A stretch of DNA of 64,000 nucleotides from Escherichia phage dhaeg: sequence record MN850609.1; one strand, given 5' to 3'. The notes under the pieces were generated by a model. That model was not told where the DNA came from. It saw nothing but the letters and a program-made list of their open reading frames with translations, and ran no database searches. Of the stretch, positions 3,512 to 63,742 are shown piece after piece. Positions within the stretch are counted from its first letter, which is position 1. Each line of letters begins with the position of its first letter. The position numbers were made by a program, and so were the translations under genes.

Positions 3512-3851
3512 TCTTGCATCACATGTTTATCAATTGGCTGAATATGATATTGGTGCCAATTTATTATTAGGGATTGCCACCGGTATGCTTGGCGGCTTGG
3601 TTGGTCTGGTAATGACCACGGTTATGGCTGCAATCGAGGGAGTCATGCCCATTGAGATGGGTTTCTATATGATAATCGCTCCGGCTGTCGTGGCTTATTT
3701 TATCCCTCTAGTGTATGATATTTGCCATACAAATGCTTTGAATGCTCCCATCCGTAAGAGATATGCTTTAGAGATGGCTAATTATAATGAGTATGTAAAA
3801 CAAACCAAACGTAATGACCTTGAAACCTTTATTAAGGAATGTAAATCATGA
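3498..3851 (+). CDS. Hypothetical membrane protein
   Basis: ATG 3498 after SD AAGGAGG; hydrophobic segments LLLGIATGMLGGLVGLVMTTV and YMIIAPAVVAYFIPLV. Confidence 0.55.
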   Translation: MERPNLASHVYQLAEYDIGANLLLGIATGMLGGLVGLVMTTVMAAIEGVMPIEMGFYMIIAPAVVAYFIPLVYDICHTNALNAPIRKRYALEMANYNEYVKQTKRNDLETFIKECKS

Positions 3852-4138
3852 ATAAAATTGAAATTGAAATCCCTGAATACAACGACGAGAAATCTGCAGA
3901 AAAAGCTATCTATGCTCTTCTGAATAAAGTAGATATCATCGAATCCAAATGTGAAGCTATTGCCGATAAGTACGGTATTCAATTCGGAACAGGTGATTAT
4001 GGCTCAGGACGTACATACTATCCGGTCGGTTATGAATGCTCCCAGTGGTTTAAAGATGAAATTGAAAACAATGGCGGTGAAGTTGAAAATGGCGTCGTTA
4101 CAGTTGGTGCCTGGGTCTCCTCTTCGGCAATGTGCTAA
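3848..4138 (+). CDS. Small protein, member 1 of tandem family with C-terminal W-x-SSS-x-x-C tail
   Basis: ends ...GAWVSSSAMC; SD+ATG; shares ADKY...GDY motif with member 2. Confidence 0.65.
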   Translation: MNKIEIEIPEYNDEKSAEKAIYALLNKVDIIESKCEAIADKYGIQFGTGDYGSGRTYYPVGYECSQWFKDEIENNGGEVENGVVTVGAWVSSSAMC

Positions 4139-9696: not shown

Positions 9697-10185
9697 ATGG
9701 ATATTTTTGATATGTTACGTCAAGACGAAGGTCTTGATTTAAATCTTTATAAAGACACCGAAGGTTATTGGACTATTGGTATAGGCCAATTGATTACTAA
9801 GAACCCATCTAAAGATGTTGCTCGCGCTGAACTTGATAAGCTTATGGGTCGAGTTTGTAATGGTCGTATTACTATGGCTGAAGCCGAACAACTCTTTAAT
9901 CGTTCAGTAGAAAATGCCCGTAGAGCTATAACGCGCAATCCTAAATTGAAACCGGTTTATGATGTGCTAGACGAAGTTCGTCGTTGCGCATTGATTAATA
10001 TGGTCTTCCAAATGGGTGAAGCTGGTGTAGCGGGATTTACCAACTCTCTGCGTATGCTCCAACAAAAACGTTGGGATGACGCCGCAGTTAACCTGGCGCA
10101 GTCTCGTTGGTACAAGCAAACCCCTAATCGTGCCAAGCGTGTTATCGCCACCTTTAAAACAGGTACTTGGGCCGCTTATAGATAA
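9697..10185 (+). CDS. e: Endolysin, T4 lysozyme (GH24)
   Basis: Near-colinear with T4 lysozyme ([13 protein letters not shown]...[13 protein letters not shown]...; catalytic E11/D20/T26 context conserved). Confidence 0.95.
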
Positions 10186-11328: not shown

Positions 11329-11621
11329 TGACTGATGAAGAGCTTTTTGAGTTCTGTTATTTCTCACGTAAGGTTCGAAGAGAGGACCTTACTACAAATT
11401 TCGAATATGCTTATTTCTATCCATTAGAATATGTATTCATGTCAGGGCCCTTTAAGGGCTCTCGTTTTAGATGTCATGCCCCAAGCATCCGATTAATGAA
11501 ACAGGTTCCTTACTTCACTCTCGAGTTCATCTCTGGGCCGTGTAAGGGTATTATTACTCGCAGTCTCTTGACGTATGACCAAGAGATTCATATGATTTCT
11601 GACTGGAAAAAATATGTCTAA
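11325..11621 (+). CDS. Hypothetical protein
   Basis: ATGATG overlap with upstream stop. Confidence 0.55.
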   Translation: MMTDEELFEFCYFSRKVRREDLTTNFEYAYFYPLEYVFMSGPFKGSRFRCHAPSIRLMKQVPYFTLEFISGPCKGIITRSLLTYDQEIHMISDWKKYV

Positions 11622-11832
11622 ATTGACAATTGAAGGCTCTGATGAAGCTCTGAAGAGATTTGTTGAATGGTTTAATGGGCCGGGTGAACAAGACTTTCTG
11701 GAAGTCTGGGACGGCGGCCAATGGAATGGTAAAGAAATTGTTTACCCAACTACTTATATCTCCGTGCAAGGTTGGACTGAAGGCCTTCGTTTGGTGGAAT
11801 ATGATATCGCAACTGGCGAGGAAGTGAAATGA
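11614..11832 (+). CDS. Hypothetical small protein
   Basis: ORF, overlapping start. Confidence 0.55.
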   Translation: MSKLTIEGSDEALKRFVEWFNGPGEQDFLEVWDGGQWNGKEIVYPTTYISVQGWTEGLRLVEYDIATGEEVK

Positions 11833-12107
11833 TTGAAGACATCAAAGGTTACAAGCCACATACCGACGATAAAATAGGTAAAGTGAATGCCATTAAAGAT
11901 GCTGAAGTTCGATTGGGCTTAATCTTTAAAGCATTAGAAGAAGAATATGTTGAAGCCTTTACATGCTCCGGTGTTGATAAAATGAGTGATGAAGAATTCG
12001 ACCTTACTCATGAACGCCTCGCCCAGATTCGTACGGCAATCGAACGCTTGAAAGAAGCATCCATGTGGGCCTGTCGTTCCGTTTTCCAACCGGAAGAGAA
12101 ATACTAA
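11829..12107 (+). CDS. Hypothetical small protein
   Basis: SD GAGGAAGTGAAATG. Confidence 0.55.
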   Translation: MIEDIKGYKPHTDDKIGKVNAIKDAEVRLGLIFKALEEEYVEAFTCSGVDKMSDEEFDLTHERLAQIRTAIERLKEASMWACRSVFQPEEKY

Positions 12108-12316
12108 TGAAAATCGAAAGTTTGCAAGAATTCCAACGTATCATCAGTGAAGCCTGTACTGGCTACCACAAATACTTGCTTGACGACCAAATGGCTTGTA
12201 TTGAAGAAGGTGAATTGCAGTACGCAGCCCAGCGCCTTGAACAGGTGAAAGAGTTTTATCCGGTGCTGGTAGAAATTTGTTCTGCTGTCGGAAAACTTAC
12301 CCCATTCCAAGAATAA
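12107..12316 (+). CDS. Hypothetical small protein
   Basis: TAATGA overlap start; SD GGAAGAGAAA. Confidence 0.5.
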   Translation: MKIESLQEFQRIISEACTGYHKYLLDDQMACIEEGELQYAAQRLEQVKEFYPVLVEICSAVGKLTPFQE

Positions 12317-12320
12317 AGCA

Positions 12321-12361
12321 GTTTACATCTCCTGTAGACGTGGTACTATAGACCTATCAAC
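12321..12361 (+). promoter_or_regulatory. Early promoter cassette with stem-loop (ATCTCCTGTAG / CTACAGGAGAT perfect 11-bp arms)
   Basis: GTTTAC 12321-12326, TACTAT 12344-12349, conserved AGACCTATCAAC. Confidence 0.6.
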
Positions 12362-12377
12362 TACAGGAGATTACAAA

Positions 12378-12836
12378 ATGTCAGAAATTAATTCAGAAGT
12401 ATTCATCCGCCGCAACAAATTACGTCGTCAGTTCGAAACCGAATTTCGTGAACTTAACGCGTCCATCAAAAAAGCCGCCATTAAGAGCGGTGTCCCAGCT
12501 TTCTTTATTAAGTACTCTAATCACTTGTTGGACCGTGCTATCCAACGTGAAATTGACGAAAAATATGTTTTCTCTTTGTTCAAGAAGCTCCATAATCATG
12601 TTAAAGAAATCCATGAATTTTTAATCCAGGAGCCTCTTCCTGACATAGAATCTGAAATTGTCCCAGGTAAAGTGTATCGTCCACTGCGTCTCGAGATTAC
12701 CGATAAAACCTTATGGTTGGGTATGACCGTAGATCGTAAACATCCTGATAAAGGATATTCATTAAAATGTCGTATGGCATTTGTTAATTCTAAACGTTTA
12801 GAAGGTAAAACCAGCACGAAAGTAATCTATCTTTAA
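12378..12836 (+). CDS. Hypothetical protein (152 aa)
   Basis: SD CTACAGGAGATTACAAAATG. Confidence 0.65.
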   Translation: MSEINSEVFIRRNKLRRQFETEFRELNASIKKAAIKSGVPAFFIKYSNHLLDRAIQREIDEKYVFSLFKKLHNHVKEIHEFLIQEPLPDIESEIVPGKVYRPLRLEITDKTLWLGMTVDRKHPDKGYSLKCRMAFVNSKRLEGKTSTKVIYL

Positions 12837-12848
12837 TAATGAGGTCTC

Positions 12849-13388
12849 ATGAAAAAAGTATTAGCCACTTTACTATTGACAGTTAGTATGTCTGCCTATA
12901 GCGTAGAGCCTACTTTCAGTAATGAACAACTCGATAATTTACATTATGCGTATGCTTTCGGTGAACAATACCAAAAGTCGGGAAAGTTCAAAGAAAACCC
13001 TAATCAAAAAGGATTAGGATATATAATGGCCGGATTATTATGGCAGGAATCATCTGCTGGAATTAATCAAGGTTTAAATAAAGATAAGCACCATGCTTAT
13101 GGCATGTTCCAAAATTACTTGCCTACGTTAAGAAGTCGTGTTCAACAGGTAGGTTGGAAGATGTCAGACAAAGAAATAATTCGCATGGTCCAAAAACGAC
13201 AGAACAGTGCCTCTTGGGCCTACATTGAGCTGTCTTATTGGATTGATGTTCACAAAGGTGACCTGAGAAAAGCGATTGCTTCTTATAATGCGGGCTGGAA
13301 TGTCAAAGCAGGCAGTAAATATGCTTCCGAAGTTCTAGAAAAGGCCAATTACCTAAAATCTAAAAAGATGTTTGAGGCGGTATATTAA
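12849..13388 (+). CDS. Secreted lytic transglycosylase (SLT-domain)-like protein
   Basis: Signal peptide MKKVLATLLLTVSMSAYS; motif WQESS...GMFQ resembles SLT catalytic E-S...G(L/M)(M/F)Q. Confidence 0.5.
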   Translation: MKKVLATLLLTVSMSAYSVEPTFSNEQLDNLHYAYAFGEQYQKSGKFKENPNQKGLGYIMAGLLWQESSAGINQGLNKDKHHAYGMFQNYLPTLRSRVQQVGWKMSDKEIIRMVQKRQNSASWAYIELSYWIDVHKGDLRKAIASYNAGWNVKAGSKYASEVLEKANYLKSKKMFEAVY

Positions 13389-13745
13389 ATGATTAAACAG
13401 ATGACTATAGCGCTTATGTTGATTGCTCCGGGAGTATTAGCATCACAGGTTGATGATACAAATAATTCAATTGTCGAGTATGCCACCCGTACAGCAAAAG
13501 ATTATTGTCATCCGAGTAATACTGAATGTGTTATTGAATTCAGTTCAAAAATAACAGCTGCTTTTAAAGATGGACAGAACGACGTCGAGCATCGCCGAAT
13601 GAAAGAGAAAACTCTTTCTAAAAGATACGAGCAACGTCTAAACGTTACTGAATGTGTTCCGTCTGATAAAAAGTACAAAGAAATGTGCGCGTCTATGGTA
13701 GACAGACTCGTTGACTCTTACAACCGAGGGCTAAACTCTAAATGA
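13389..13745 (+). CDS. Secreted Cys-containing hypothetical protein
   Basis: Signal peptide MIKQMTIALMLIAPGVLAS. Confidence 0.6.
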   Translation: MIKQMTIALMLIAPGVLASQVDDTNNSIVEYATRTAKDYCHPSNTECVIEFSSKITAAFKDGQNDVEHRRMKEKTLSKRYEQRLNVTECVPSDKKYKEMCASMVDRLVDSYNRGLNSK

Positions 13746-14221
13746 TTATTGATTATATTAAGGGCGATATCGTCGCCCTGTTTCTTCAAGGTAATATTAT
13801 TGCACACGGGTGCAACTGTTTTCATACTATGGGTTCAGGTGTGGCTGGTCAATTAGCAAAGGCCTATCCTAAAATATTAGAAATTGATAAGACCACTACT
13901 GAATATGGTTCTCGTGATAAATTGGGTGATATGTCTATTGTTTTTAAACATAAGCCTAATGGATTTGCAATGTGCTATAATTTATACACCCAATACGAAC
14001 CAGGCCCTAATCTTGATTACGGTGCTTTAGTAAACTGTATGATAGAATTAAATCTACAAGCAAATGACCTTTTGTTTAAACCAAGAATTTATATTCCTCG
14101 CATTGGTTGTGGTATTGCTGGTGGTGATTGGGACAAGGTTTCTAAATTAATCGACATGTTTACTCCTGATATTGATTTAATAGTGGTGGATTATGAAAGC
14201 ACATTACCCACATCCGTTTGA
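13742..14221 (+). CDS. Macro-domain protein (ADP-ribose binding/hydrolase-like)
   Basis: GDIV...IIAHGCNCFHTMGSGVAGQL and IGCGIAGGDWDKV resemble macro-domain motifs (NAAN...GGGVAGAI ; IGxGxxGG). Confidence 0.6.
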   Translation: MIIDYIKGDIVALFLQGNIIAHGCNCFHTMGSGVAGQLAKAYPKILEIDKTTTEYGSRDKLGDMSIVFKHKPNGFAMCYNLYTQYEPGPNLDYGALVNCMIELNLQANDLLFKPRIYIPRIGCGIAGGDWDKVSKLIDMFTPDIDLIVVDYESTLPTSV

Positions 14222-14405
14222 CCCTAAAAATAAAGCTGAAATTATTCGGCGCTGGACTGAAACTCGAGTAACCAAATGCCCTATAAAAAGTCAGCATAAC
14301 ACCGATAAATGGTATATTGGTGAATATGTTGAATATACTTTTATAGATAAAAATAAACGTAAACAGCATGTAGAAGAATATTGCTTAAAGGTACAATGGT
14401 TATGA
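14193..14405 (+). CDS. Hypothetical small protein
   Basis: ORF overlapping previous gene end by 29 nt. Confidence 0.4.
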   Translation: MKAHYPHPFDPKNKAEIIRRWTETRVTKCPIKSQHNTDKWYIGEYVEYTFIDKNKRKQHVEEYCLKVQWL

Positions 14406-14608
14406 GCCAAGCCCGAATTCTTAAAACAGCCAAATGTGAAAAATGCGAATGGCCGGTAATCGCAGCTTTATGCAACGATGAAATGAATTGCGAATATGAT
14501 TACTGGTGGTACTGTTCTAATAAAGGATGTTCTAATCATAAAGGTGAAGGTTTTCATTCTGGTTATTGCGAACATCCTAAATTTGTGCGATATGGTGAAC
14601 CTAAATGA
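14396..14608 (+). CDS. Small Cys-rich (zinc-binding?) protein
   Basis: CEKCEW...C...C...C pattern; track start 14381 is TTG, ATG at 14396. Confidence 0.5.
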   Translation: MVMSQARILKTAKCEKCEWPVIAALCNDEMNCEYDYWWYCSNKGCSNHKGEGFHSGYCEHPKFVRYGEPK

Positions 14609-14790
14609 GTTTGAGTAAAGAACAGAAAGACAAATTGTTTGAGCTTATCCATGAGCTTTTGGATGAACATGCCGAAGCAAACGCTTTTTACGATGAATAT
14701 GGCCCGATAGATGCCGACCATCAGGAAGAATTTGCTAATCGATTTGATGAGAAAGAAAACGAATTAATTGCTTATGTGAATAGTCTTTAA
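14605..14790 (+). CDS. Small acidic protein
   Basis: ATGA overlap start; Asp/Glu-rich. Confidence 0.5.
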   Translation: MSLSKEQKDKLFELIHELLDEHAEANAFYDEYGPIDADHQEEFANRFDEKENELIAYVNSL

Positions 14791-14799
14791 GAAGGTAAT

Positions 14800-15372
14800 A
14801 TGGCTCAACTTTATTTTCACTATGCGGCAATGAACTCAGGTAAGACAGCTTCATTGCTAACGGCGGCTCATAACTACAAAGAACGTGGTATGGGCGTGCT
14901 CCTTTTAAAGCCTGCGATAGACAATAGAGAATCAAGCCATACCATTTCGTCTCGTATAGGGATTAGTCAAGAGGCTAATGCAGTGACTCCGGATATGGAC
15001 CTATACGAGTTCTATCGTTGGGCTGAATCTCAAAAAGATATCCACTGTGTGTTTGTGGATGAAGCACAGTTCTTAGAACCTGCACAGATAAAACAACTGG
15101 CAAAGATAGTAGACAATTATAATGTTCCAGTTATGTGTTATGGACTAAGAACTGATTTTCAGGGTAAACTGTTTCCTGGTTCTGCCGAATTACTCGCTAC
15201 GGCAGATAAACTCGTTGAGTACAAAGGTGTGTGCCATTGTGGCCGTAAAGCTACTATGACTGCTAGGGTCCAAGATGGTATCGCAATTAAGGACGGAGCC
15301 CAAGTTTCTATAGGTGGCAACGATTCTTACGTGTCATTGTGCAGGAAGCACTGGATAGAAATAACGAGTTGA
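14800..15372 (+). CDS. tk: Thymidine kinase
   Basis: MAQLYFHYAAMNSGKTASLL P-loop, C-terminal zinc ribbon CHCG...C; matches T4 Tk. Confidence 0.9.
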   Translation: MAQLYFHYAAMNSGKTASLLTAAHNYKERGMGVLLLKPAIDNRESSHTISSRIGISQEANAVTPDMDLYEFYRWAESQKDIHCVFVDEAQFLEPAQIKQLAKIVDNYNVPVMCYGLRTDFQGKLFPGSAELLATADKLVEYKGVCHCGRKATMTARVQDGIAIKDGAQVSIGGNDSYVSLCRKHWIEITS

Positions 15373-15379
15373 GGGTACT

Positions 15380-15658
15380 ATGGACCTAAATTCAAAGATT
15401 TTAATTCTAGCGTTCGCTGTGGCCATCTCTTATATTGTTCTTTCGCCCATCATGGATGATGTGGCTTACAAAAGAGAGATAGAAGTTGTAGCAGCGACGT
15501 ATAATGCTAATAATAAAGAATGTCCTAATAAAAATGGAATGGATTTAATTAAAGCGCATTATATGCTTTCCATTACCTCGCCTATACAGAGGAATTGGGT
15601 TGAATATAATTTTAACGACGTGTTCTATTCTTATTGTCGTAAGCTTAAAAAGCTATAA
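15380..15658 (+). CDS. Hypothetical membrane protein
   Basis: N-terminal TM helix; SD GAGGGTACTATG. Confidence 0.55.
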   Translation: MDLNSKILILAFAVAISYIVLSPIMDDVAYKREIEVVAATYNANNKECPNKNGMDLIKAHYMLSITSPIQRNWVEYNFNDVFYSYCRKLKKL

Positions 15659-41932: not shown

Positions 41933-42433
41933 ATGAAAAAGTTAATTATCGCAATGAGTATGCTCCTATCAGGTTGCGCGGTCCAATACGGCGATGCAGT
42001 TTCGGCTGATGAAGTTGGTAAAGCTCGTATTGCAGCTGAACAGAAACAATTCGACGGCGAAATGAAATTCCGTGCTGGTTCTGGACTTGTGTATACCCGA
42101 GCTAATAATCAATGTGGTAATAACTGTGCAAAATATGCTCAAAGGGAAATCGAATTCCAACGTGAACAAGAGTCTAAGCGTGAAGCGGTACTAGCCAAAC
42201 ACCAGGCAGAAATGAAGCGCCAAGATGATTTGTACAAAAAGCAGAAACTGTACGCGATGTGTGTAAACCATATCAATCTACAGATTTCCGTCCACGAGGC
42301 CCGTTATTACGAAATGCTCGAAACCGAGAGCTTCGATAAGGCGCGCGATTATAAGAAACAAATCAACAAGCTTAAGACCAAAGTGCCTGCTGCAGTAGAA
42401 CAGTGCATGGAATACGGTAAAGATAAGATTTAA
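41933..42433 (+). CDS. Lipoprotein
   Basis: Lipobox LLSGC; SD GAGGATATTATG. Confidence 0.6.
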   Translation: MKKLIIAMSMLLSGCAVQYGDAVSADEVGKARIAAEQKQFDGEMKFRAGSGLVYTRANNQCGNNCAKYAQREIEFQREQESKREAVLAKHQAEMKRQDDLYKKQKLYAMCVNHINLQISVHEARYYEMLETESFDKARDYKKQINKLKTKVPAAVEQCMEYGKDKI

Positions 42434-50834: not shown

Positions 50835-51128
50835 ATGAAAAAGTTATTAATCGCAGCAATCCTTACAGTAGCATCATGTGGCACGGCTCCGGTAACTGCC
50901 GGATTGGATAAAGACCTTTGTGAATGGTCTATGACTGCAGACCAAGAGTCAGTTGAACATCAGATTTACGCTGATATCATGAACATCACTAAACGCGACC
51001 GTCCTGATATGGTTAAAGAAGTATCTGACCAATTGGCTTCTAGTGGTGTTATGCAGTATAACTATGTTCTGTACTGTGATGCTAATTTCGATAACAAAAA
51101 TATTGTTAAAGAGGTGACAGGTGAATAA
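50835..51128 (+). CDS. sp: Spackle periplasmic protein
   Basis: 97 aa, signal peptide, colinear with T4 Sp as recalled (..DKDLCEWSMTADQ..VMQYNYVLYCD..). Confidence 0.75.
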   Translation: MKKLLIAAILTVASCGTAPVTAGLDKDLCEWSMTADQESVEHQIYADIMNITKRDRPDMVKEVSDQLASSGVMQYNYVLYCDANFDNKNIVKEVTGE

Positions 51129-63481: not shown

Positions 63482-63742
63482 ATGAAATACGTTAATCGTT
63501 CTATTGCAGCTCTGGTACTAGCAGTTTCGTTGGTTGGTTGTACTGATGCCGATAATGCCGCCCGTGTATTGGATGCAAATGGCTACAAACAAATCCAAAT
63601 CACAGGATACAACCTATTTGGCTGTTCTGAAGATGATTTCCAACGTACAGGCTTTATTGCTGTAGGTCCGACAGGTAAAAGGGTTGAAGGAACAGTTTGT
63701 TCTGGGTTATTCTTTAAAAAGTCGACCATCCGATTTGATTAA
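63482..63742 (+). CDS. Small lipoprotein
   Basis: Lipobox LVGC; SD AGTGAGAAATTATG. Confidence 0.55.
   Translation: MKYVNRSIAALVLAVSLVGCTDADNAARVLDANGYKQIQITGYNLFGCSEDDFQRTGFIAVGPTGKRVEGTVCSGLFFKKSTIRFD

Follow-up and report, generated by a model that had tools for sequence, protein, structure and literature searches.

Vs.1 and Vs of a Dhakavirus phage as a candidate exported GH23 enzyme and its putative four-helix envelope partner

The adjacent genes vs.1 and vs of Escherichia phage dhaeg, orthologues of the T4 genes of the same names, probably encode an exported GH23 enzyme and an exported four-helix envelope partner, a reading to which we assign a probability of about 0.68. The analysis covered a stretch of 64,000 nucleotides from sequence record MN850609.1 (hereafter the window), which belongs to a JS98-like, T4-type Dhakavirus phage. 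The vs.1 product was reportedly described as similar to the SLT domain by Miller in 2003. The resemblance of Vs.1 to SLT was also published in 2006 (PMC1524935). This similarity is known already and is placed here on firmer ground, with little changed. The added value lies in the second gene, where the signs of export in Vs clash with its textbook intracellular job.

Results

The vs.1-vs pair is conserved in T4-type phages

The preliminary description had placed one ORF at 12849-13388 and a second one directly after it, within 12849-13745. Both are present in the window and correspond to vs.1 (179 aa) and vs (13389-13745, 118 aa), flanked by regB and tk.4. The DNA of the locus is 98-99% identical to Dhakavirus genomes, and the regB-vs.1-vs-tk.4 order is kept in the annotation of JS98 and T4.

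12378-12836, plus strand: regB, site-specific endoribonuclease (Pfam REGB_T4, E=2e-69; JS98 annotation)
12849-13388, plus strand: vs.1 coding sequence, 179 aa, ATG to TAA (98-99% DNA identity to Dhakavirus vs.1; phrog_600, E=5e-67)
13389-13745, plus strand: vs coding sequence, 118 aa, ATG to TGA (phrog_1256, E=4e-34; PF26829; JS98 and T4 annotation)
13742-14221, plus strand: tk.4, macro-domain gene (Pfam Macro, E=4e-8)

The regB stop codon lies only 12 nt upstream of vs.1, and co-transcription of the two genes is therefore likely. The vs start codon begins at the base right after the vs.1 stop, the ATG of tk.4 (13742) overlaps the vs stop, and a Shine-Dalgarno-like GAGG is located 4-8 nt before each of vs.1 and vs. 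A sigma-70-like site was identified at 12322-12349, though the scan of positions 11500-15500 for promoters and terminators performed overall no better than on shuffled sequence. The T4 Tk.4 protein has been named AdfM, an anti-DarTG2 factor (preprint 10.1101/2025.11.20.689424).

Both vs.1 and vs are true conserved genes rather than chance ORFs, with relatives of Vs.1 found in 2074 phage records and relatives of Vs in 795; a search of NCBIfam gave no match for either protein. Window Vs.1 is 99% identical to the JS10 and E33 proteins and, by tblastn, 66-67% identical to the T4-type (Tequatrovirus-size) members of phrog_600, which comprises T4 Vs.1 (NP_049725) and its Straboviridae orthologues. 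It equals T4 Vs.1 in length, motifs, and position between regB and vs, with no difference of substance, and represents the Dhakavirus allele. Window Vs is 45% identical to T4-type Vs (PF26829, phrog_1256; tblastn), with the same length, position, and cysteine pattern.

The two genes are also linked well beyond Dhakavirus. A Vs-like gene is located downstream of vs.1 in 64 of 70 Vs.1 loci and abuts or overlaps the vs.1 end in 56 of these 70 (gap of -8 to +7 nt), while vs.1 stands immediately upstream in all 27 Vs loci (gap of -8 to +3 nt). The pair is kept in Acinetobacter-type phages that lack regB and tk.4 at this place. Vs.1-like genes without an adjacent Vs-like gene occur in some Straboviridae and in Felixounavirus. 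A mirror-tree comparison of Vs.1 with Vs gave r=0.70 versus 0.85 for regB with Vs.1, that is, no excess co-variation over neighbors. Because the genes abut or overlap across distant T4-type phages, we infer a joint function of Vs and Vs.1 in the envelope, and we read the pair as a probable co-exported periplasmic module whose members may act as partners.

Vs.1 carries the conserved residues of GH23 enzymes

The preliminary description had noted a WQESS...GMFQ motif in the first ORF and had likened it to the catalytic region of soluble lytic transglycosylases. Both parts of the motif were located, together with the remaining positions expected of an SLT domain.

13041-13055, plus strand: WQESS (W65-Q-E67-S-S69), SLT motif I; codon 13047-13049 specifies Glu67, the predicted catalytic residue (conservation and EtgA alignment)
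13101-13112, plus strand: GMFQ (G85-M-F-Q88), SLT motif II, equivalent to G-L-M-Q (G85 and Q88 invariant)
13284-13295, plus strand: YNAG (Y146-G149), SLT motif III (Y146, N147, A148, and G149 invariant)
13320-13322, plus strand: Tyr158, conserved C-terminal active-site tyrosine (invariant in alignments A1 and A3)

Conservation was assessed in an alignment of 38 Vs.1 homologues (A1) and in a second alignment of 64 more distant relatives (A3). W65, E67, and S69 are invariant in 38/38 sequences of A1, as are G85, Q88, Y146, N147, A148, G149, and Y158, with S145-Y-N-A-G149 as the motif context, and E67 is also invariant throughout A3. E67-S68 is aligned with ES in both EtgA and goose-type lysozyme, YNAG aligns with the AYNAG of EtgA, MltD, and goose-type lysozyme, and Tyr158 aligns with the "YA" of EtgA, in which Y133 is given as an active-site residue (PMC10880428).

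Profile searches agree with the SLT-like reading. Window Vs.1 alone scored 15.7 bits against Pfam SLT (PF01464; E=0.011), for which the gathering score is 21.3 bits, and a single-sequence search against the PDB gave no match. At the level of the family, Pfam SLT matched 37 of the 38 homologues at E<=0.1 (best 1.3e-7) and 31 of the 64 wider relatives at E<=0.001 (best 2.2e-10). The A3 profile reached EtgA (8urn_A) in the PDB at E=1.2e-6 over 117 residues, with the ES, G..Q, YNAG, and YA positions aligned, and EtgA is the only PDB protein significantly reached by the family profile. The A1 profile matched five goose-type lysozymes weakly but consistently, along almost the whole length.

A GH23 fold, on which the preliminary description had staked its reading beforehand, is predicted by the AlphaFold2 model of Vs.1 (pLDDT 86.5). 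In a Foldseek search of this model against the PDB, ranks 1-14 were all GH23 enzymes, including MltD, Slt, Slt70, and goose-type lysozyme. The probabilities were 0.66-0.99, and this fold support is moderate because the E-values were 0.05-0.9 and the TM-scores 0.36-0.49.

Comparison with characterized enzymes points to both a shared core and a distinct setting. EtgA, IpgF, and IagB, the "specialized" glycosidases of type III secretion, resemble Vs.1 in size (~150-180 aa), in the Sec signal peptide, in having a single GH23-like domain, and in the conserved E, Q, Y-N-x-G, and Y positions. However, EtgA has a conserved disulfide and Asp60, whereas Vs.1 has no cysteine and carries Ala83 instead, along with an extra N-terminal helix (residues 25-38). 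Unlike these glycosidase genes, vs.1 is found in a lytic phage among the early genes regB, vs, and tk.4, with no secretion or conjugation cluster. Slt70, MltD, and Slt (family 1, PF01464) and goose-type lysozyme (GH23) share the fold and the ES, G-L-M-Q, and A-Y-N-A-G motifs with Vs.1, and goose-type lysozyme also matches it in overall length and in the position of the glutamate. Superhelical, LysM, and lipoprotein modules are all absent from Vs.1, and identity is only 14-18%.

Ala83 is nearly invariant and falls at the EtgA Asp60 position according to the spacing in the A3-EtgA alignment; Slt70 likewise has Ala, not Asp, before its GLMQ motif (residue roles from PMC10880428). A lytic-transglycosylase reaction, yielding 1,6-anhydroMurNAc, would be the likelier chemistry for Vs.1 because it lacks this second carboxylate of true lysozymes.

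Both proteins have predicted signal peptides

The preliminary description had assigned a cleavable signal peptide to the first ORF and had called the second secreted and cysteine-containing. By sequence rules, both N-termini have the n, h, and c features of signal peptides: the n-region is basic, the hydrophobic stretch is 15-16 residues long and free of charge, and the residues at -3 and -1 are small. The predicted cuts, both after residue 18, fall between AYS and VEP in Vs.1 and between VLA and SQV in Vs.

12849-12902, plus strand: predicted cleavable signal peptide of Vs.1, residues 1-18, MKKVLATLLLTVSMSAYS followed by VEP (sequence rules; conserved hydrophobic character)
13389-13442, plus strand: predicted cleavable signal peptide of Vs, residues 1-18, MIKQMTIALMLIAPGVLA followed by SQV (sequence rules)

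A crude signal-peptide filter was applied to the 171 window ORFs that start with ATG and encode 60 aa or more, and just seven passed, Vs.1 and Vs among them; the others include an rI homologue, a spackle homologue, and two ORFs with lipoprotein-box-like N-termini. The spackle homologue is located at 50835-51128. The same filter was passed by 31/38 Vs.1 homologues, 24/26 Vs homologues, and 46/48 Vs-like neighbors, and the failures had a polar residue within the hydrophobic run or a longer N-terminal extension. In alignment A1 the sequence of the Vs.1 signal region varies while its hydrophobic character is retained. The N-termini are disordered in the AlphaFold2 models, with pLDDT 55-58 for Vs.1 residues 1-20 and below 50 for Vs residues 1-21.

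The Vs family shows the same character in more than one form. The T4 Vs N-terminus reads ...SFSASASA before DTS at the predicted cut, CC31-like relatives have the lipobox LSGC in place of a cleavable signal peptide, and one Vs relative carries the name "Lipoprotein" in BFVD. These features and their conservation suggest that Vs.1 and Vs are both exported. A SAR-type anchor was rejected because the hydrophobic run spans just 15-16 residues and is followed by a cleavage site, and Vs.1 is not a lipoprotein because it contains no cysteine.

Vs is a predicted four-helix protein with four conserved cysteines

The four cysteines of Vs (C40, C47, C89, and C100) are conserved across the family.

13506-13529, plus strand: first cysteine pair, C40 (13506-13508) and C47 (13527-13529), flanking the turn between helix 1 and helix 2 (invariant in alignments A2 and A4)
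13653-13688, plus strand: second cysteine pair, C89 (13653-13655) and C100 (13686-13688), around the turn between helix 3 and helix 4 (invariant in alignments A2 and A4)

The AlphaFold2 model of Vs (pLDDT 79) contains helices at residues 23-39, 45-68, 73-89, and 94-115. Only the four cysteines and two glycines are invariant across 16 diverse mature Vs sequences, and all Vs homologues carry PF26829. A profile of Vs-like proteins matched T4-type phage proteins only and found no cellular relatives. Fold searches with the Vs model gave only generic helical bundles in the PDB, all at E>=1, and only Vs relatives in BFVD. No similarity was detected between Vs and spackle, the T4 periplasmic lysozyme inhibitor. 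Sequence and model together predict that Vs, although annotated as a valyl-tRNA synthetase modifier, is exported and folds into four helices with four conserved cysteines.

In T4 Vs, the first internal methionine does not occur before residue 100, leaving no signal-less form from an internal start. The calculated masses are 11.0 kDa for the mature protein and 13.1 kDa for the precursor. In T4 transposon data, phages mutated in vs or in vs.1 are viable, vs.1 being non-essential. All flanking genes listed took more insertion reads than either of the two.

Discussion

In the reading we favor, Vs.1 would be synthesized as a precursor with a cleavable Sec signal peptide and reach the periplasm of the infected cell as a basic, cysteine-free protein of ~18.6 kDa with a GH23 fold of the SLT or goose-lysozyme type. 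Its most likely action there would be to cut peptidoglycan at the MurNAc-GlcNAc bond, Glu67 serving as the only acid/base. Vs, translated from the same message and likewise exported, would be a four-helix protein of ~11.5 kDa stabilized by the four invariant cysteines, probably in two disulfides. It may contact Vs.1 and act with it in the envelope as a restraint, an activator, or a targeting partner. A small helical partner is known for EtgA, which depends on EscI (PMC10880428).

Other roles for Vs.1 fit the evidence less well. That the protein is non-catalytic and its SLT resemblance superficial seems very unlikely to us; the sub-threshold Pfam match of the single protein and the modest Foldseek E-values would allow it, but none of the four SLT motif positions varies over 38-64 diverged sequences and the family-level matches to Pfam SLT and EtgA are significant. 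Rather doubtful, though considerably more credible, is a role in lysis, in which Vs.1 would be an auxiliary signal-peptide endolysin held inactive in the energized envelope, perhaps by Vs, until holin depolarization frees it to aid the e lysozyme. T4 e mutants fail to lyse though vs.1 is present, and any Vs.1 activity must therefore be weak or tightly restrained. The window phage has its own T4-type e lysozyme (9697-10185), so vs.1 is not the principal endolysin, and vs.1 lies within the early-gene block, away from holin and spanins. The lysis role draws on Felixounavirus, in which the annotation of Vs.1-like genes reads "putative lysin" and spanins are encoded close by, and on signal-peptide endolysins such as fOg44 Lys44 and F352 Lys, with which Vs.1 shares a predicted Sec signal peptide before a muralytic domain. 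[quoted passage not shown] A similar pairing of enzyme and regulator is seen in Firehammervirus and in phage F379, where an SLT endolysin is accompanied by a small overlapping "lysis inhibitor" gene (PMC7692668). However, the F352 and F379 enzymes are the main endolysins of their phages, the F379 inhibitor gene is upstream of its enzyme whereas vs is downstream of vs.1, and no specific homology was detected between F352 Lys and Vs.1 beyond the common Pfam family. A role in superinfection exclusion, as the preliminary description had proposed, or in resistance to lysis from without would have Vs.1 act on incoming phage; we consider this improbable, as we do a virion enzyme that works at infection. 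A predicted periplasmic wall-active protein from the early-gene block would suit exclusion, and T4-type phages send other early proteins, such as spackle, to the periplasm for this purpose, but a wall-cutting enzyme would aid rather than block an incoming tail, and Vs does not resemble spackle. The virion enzyme was rejected, a Sec signal peptide being incompatible with cytoplasmic virion assembly.

The location of Vs is the more consequential question. Classically, T4 Vs binds and alters the cytoplasmic host valyl-tRNA synthetase (1960s-80s work on the tau factor), and the modifier name is used throughout the databases. Vs may thus be a cytoplasmic binder of this synthetase that follows vs.1 merely through tight packing of T4 early genes, which commonly abut or overlap, as regB, vs.1, vs, and tk.4 all do; we regard this as possible but not as the leading explanation. 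The mirror-tree result would agree with it, the four cysteines could bind zinc in the cytoplasm instead of forming disulfides, and variants of it invoke an inefficient hydrophobic N-terminus or dual localization. Against it stand the canonical signal peptide predicted family-wide, the lipobox of one clade, and the four invariant cysteines, which together would contradict a cytoplasmic location. The restriction of invariance to these cysteines and two glycines, the lack of an early internal methionine in T4 Vs, and the persistence of the vs.1-vs pair after other neighbors are lost in distant phages argue in the same direction. The reported size of tau, ~10 kDa, is closer to processed T4 Vs than to its precursor and also counts against the cytoplasmic reading. 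Among the papers searched, none links Vs to the periplasm. In a 2025 T4 transposon screen (HIDEN-SEQ), vs was the strongest minimal-medium fitness gene, an effect that the study interpreted through valyl-tRNA synthetase.

We put forward tentatively a stronger version of the exported reading, in which Vs is a Sec-exported, disulfide-bonded partner (in one clade a lipoprotein) that restrains or directs Vs.1, and in which the tau activity on valyl-tRNA synthetase comes from another ORF or is secondary. If this is true, misregulation of a wall enzyme, rather than an effect on translation, would underlie the plaque defect that T4 vs mutants show on minimal medium. Family-wide signs of export, together with the tight linkage of Vs to a predicted periplasmic wall enzyme across distant T4-type phages, provide a concrete alternative to the valyl-tRNA synthetase role. 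Such a pair would reveal an unstudied early periplasmic module for peptidoglycan remodeling in the best-known phage family.

Identification of vs.1 and vs

The window comes from a T4-type phage (genus Dhakavirus); its bases 12300-14300 share 98-99% identity with Escherichia phages Esco_phi_B-01, JS98, dhabil and CLB_P2. At the corresponding place in JS98 and T4, the annotated gene order is regB, vs.1, vs, tk.4, and the two ORFs under study were therefore identified as follows:

12849-13388 (+), vs.1 CDS, 179 aa, phrog_600 (function not assigned by PHROGs)
13389-13745 (+), vs CDS, 118 aa, phrog_1256, annotated "valyl-tRNA synthetase modifier"

The end of regB lies 12 nt before the start of vs.1, the first base of vs immediately follows the vs.1 stop, and vs and tk.4 overlap at their stop and start codons. 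A GAGG ribosome-binding site precedes each of vs.1 and vs, and a promoter and terminator scan across the regB-vs.1-vs-tk.4 region gave no convincing internal signals.

Vs.1 as a predicted GH23/SLT-type enzyme

The SLT reading of Vs.1 is already published. Nolan et al. in 2006 found that all six vs.1 orthologs then available matched the Pfam SLT family marginally (E 0.012-0.74), in agreement with earlier T4 PSI-BLAST results (PMC1524935), and UniRef and some GenBank entries carry the names "Transglycosylase SLT domain-containing protein" or "SLT transglycosylase". A literature search found no experimental work on Vs.1.

The preliminary description had likewise proposed an SLT-like protein on the basis of the WQESS and GMFQ motifs, both of which are present (residues 65-69 and 85-88). 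Alone, the window Vs.1 matched SLT at E=0.011, under the curated cut-off, and its single-sequence search of the PDB gave no match. At family level, 37 of 38 homologs (42-89% identical) matched SLT at E<=0.1 (best 1.3e-7), as did 31 of 64 more distant relatives at E<=0.001 (best 2.2e-10), the latter drawn from a full HMMER scan with 501 clusters at E<=0.001. The 64-sequence profile aligned over 117 residues with the type III secretion lytic enzyme EtgA (chain in 8urn, E=1.2e-6), with the E-S, G..Q, Y-N-A-G and Y-A positions all in register, and a narrower profile gave weak, consistent full-length alignments with five goose-type lysozymes that place E67 on the catalytic glutamate. The best 14 PDB fold matches of the AlphaFold2 model (pLDDT 86.5, pTM 0.80) were all GH23 enzymes, namely MltD, Pseudomonas Slt, Slt70 and ostrich goose-type lysozyme, with probabilities up to 0.99, yet E values of 0.05-0.9 and TM-scores of 0.36-0.49. 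Residues E67, G85, Q88, N89, Y146, N147, A148, G149 and Y158 are invariant across the 38 sequences, and E67, Y146, G149 and Y158 remain so across the 64-sequence alignment. Because of these SLT, EtgA, fold and motif results, Vs.1 is supported as a predicted GH23/SLT-type enzyme, an assignment settled at family level.

In EtgA, Asp60 supplies the lysozyme-like second carboxylate; Vs.1 has a nearly invariant alanine at this position, and Slt70 likewise carries alanine (residue roles from PMC10880428). This favors lytic-transglycosylase chemistry over hydrolysis as the predicted reaction. Mature Vs.1 (18.6 kDa, pI 9.4) contains no cysteine, so a lipoprotein or disulfide-bonded form was ruled out.

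Predicted export of both proteins

Both N-termini consist of a basic n-region and a 15-16-residue hydrophobic run without charge, with small -3/-1 residues. Cleavage is predicted after residue 18 in both, between AYS and VEP in Vs.1 and between VLA and SQV in Vs, whose start reads MIKQMTIALMLIAPGVLA before SQV. The T4 Vs start, MTKILVLCIGLISFSASASA before DTS, is a textbook signal peptide. Signal-peptide character is kept in both families, the N-terminal sequences themselves vary freely, and the N-terminal residues of both AlphaFold2 models are of low confidence. Export of Vs.1 and Vs, for which the preliminary description had noted signal peptides, is thus a strong prediction.

A crude filter found signal-peptide-like N-termini in 7 of 171 window ORFs, including, besides vs.1 and vs, the rI homolog, the homolog of the periplasmic lysozyme inhibitor spackle, and two lipoprotein-box-like ORFs. 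The spackle homolog (50835-51128, +; phrog_1586, E=1.5e-42) has an N-terminus, ...LTVASCG, that resembles a lipoprotein box more than a plain signal peptide. The other two ORFs with lipoprotein-box N-termini lie at 41933-42433 (+; LLSGC) and 63482-63742 (+; LVGC), in phrog_1754 and phrog_902, both families without assigned function.

Vs as a predicted exported protein with conserved cysteines

In 56 of 70 IMG/VR loci gathered via Vs.1, the ORF directly after vs.1 encodes 99-122 aa at a gap of -8 to +7 nt, with a signal-peptide-like start and four cysteines in a fixed pattern, in line with the earlier reading of a secreted, cysteine-containing second protein. A profile built from these ORFs located a copy about 1.1 kb or less downstream in 8 further loci (total 64/70) and found relatives only in T4-type phages. 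One clade (L029-L031, L035 and L049, including a 165,540-bp genome) has a lipoprotein box, ...ALSGC, at this N-terminus, and BFVD names one Vs relative "Lipoprotein". In a diverse set of 16 mature sequences, which share 17-49% identity with the window Vs, only the four cysteines and two glycines are invariant.

The Vs model (pLDDT 79) has four helices (23-39, 45-68, 73-89 and 94-115), and the turns between helices 1 and 2 and between helices 3 and 4 each carry one cysteine pair; the model had no fold match in the PDB, and Vs showed no similarity to spackle. An allele in the IMG/VR copy of Escherichia phage vB_EcoM_005 (L003 3541-3798; P0105) has a 33-residue in-frame deletion that takes out exactly the first cysteine pair and keeps the second, which fits a predicted C40-C47 / C89-C100 pairing.

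Judged from sequence and model, these features are those expected of a periplasmic disulfide-stabilized protein and not of a cytoplasmic valyl-tRNA synthetase partner. The computed mass of T4 Vs is 11.0 kDa mature and 13.1 kDa as precursor; purified tau, the T4 factor classically linked to valyl-tRNA synthetase modification, is reportedly about 10 kDa. A literature search found no discussion of the conflict between Vs export and the synthetase role. On M9-glucose, vs was the most depleted T4 gene and a vs knockout plates poorly, a defect that the authors interpreted via valyl-tRNA synthetase (2025 preprint, 10.1101/2025.11.20.689424). In a T4 transposon screen in LB, vs.1 and vs were non-essential (46/52 and 30/32 sites hit), with 76 and 103 insertion reads, below every flanking gene listed (170-698; regB, tk.1-tk.4, vs.3, vs.4, vs.5). 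One comparison of unspecified condition in supplement 7 of the preprint (10.1101/2025.11.20.689424) gives vs.1 a log2FC of -1.20 (q=0.015) and vs -1.04, not significant, with flanking genes unchanged.

Linkage of vs.1 and vs

The gene directly upstream of vs is vs.1 in all 27 loci gathered via Vs (gap -8 to +3 nt). Among Acinetobacter-type phages (L052-L055, L059-L061), vs.1 and the Vs-like gene still abut or overlap even though regB and tk.4 are absent from the surrounding 3 kb. By tblastn, Vs.1 was found in 2074 phage records versus 795 for Vs; much of this gap reflects Vs divergence past the reach of tblastn. In L062-L069 (contigs 142-180 kb), an ORF of 131-134 aa that lacks a signal peptide, at about 3530-4030, separates vs.1 from a Vs-like gene 0.4-1.1 kb downstream. 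A Vs.1-like gene without Vs-like neighbor occurs in 6 of 70 loci and in Felixounavirus, there after rIIA/rIIB and near the spanins. In the Felixounavirus Escherichia phage momo (L073 3001-3549; 31% identity, annotated "putative lysin"), it stands right after rIIA/rIIB, with spanins 1.2 kb further on; polynucleotide kinase is the next annotated gene, so no Vs-like partner lies directly behind it.

A mirror-tree comparison of Vs.1 and Vs gave no co-variation above that of adjacent genes, with Vs evolving about twice as fast. Support for a putative Vs.1-Vs partnership thus comes only from conserved translational coupling and a shared predicted compartment.

Neighboring genes

The ORF at 11829-12107 (+; phrog_717, listed without function) encodes the homolog of T4 Vs.4, which is the anti-CBASS sponge Acb2. 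Directly after vs lies the macro-domain gene tk.4 (13742-14221, +; Pfam Macro E=4e-8); a recent transposon screen gave its T4 counterpart the name AdfM and described it as an anti-DarTG2 factor (10.1101/2025.11.20.689424). Anti-defense genes thus stand on both sides of vs.1-vs. A 69-aa ORF (12107-12316, +; phrog_2037, no assigned function) has an ATG overlapping the stop of vs.4. JS98 matches only from 12315 onward and has a vs.4-regB spacing of just 62 nt, an indel difference between close relatives. In this phage denV (10246-10662, +) comes directly after the e lysozyme gene (9697-10185, +); in JS98, ipIII and another ORF lie between them, so internal-protein genes are missing or moved here.

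Proposed mechanism and implications

A single early message may cover regB, vs.1, vs and tk.4. Sec would export Vs.1 and Vs, both would be processed, and Vs.1 would use Glu67 to cut glycan strands, while Vs, folded with DsbA-made disulfides, may limit, activate or position this activity. Precedents can be offered by analogy only: EtgA requires the rod protein EscI, a possible model for a small partner; in Firehammervirus, a small overlapping gene restrains the SLT endolysin; and in Fletchervirus, the endolysin is an SLT protein of 188 aa that carries a signal peptide and awaits the holin (PMC7692668). No relationship to Vs.1 was detectable for F352 Lys, the signal-peptide SLT endolysin of Campylobacter phage F352. 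The phage retains its own e lysozyme (9697-10185), and candidate purposes of Vs.1-Vs are auxiliary lysis, infection-time wall remodeling or a need in slow-growing cells. What goes beyond current annotation is only the predicted export of Vs and the fixed coupling of vs to vs.1, both of which are cheap to test.
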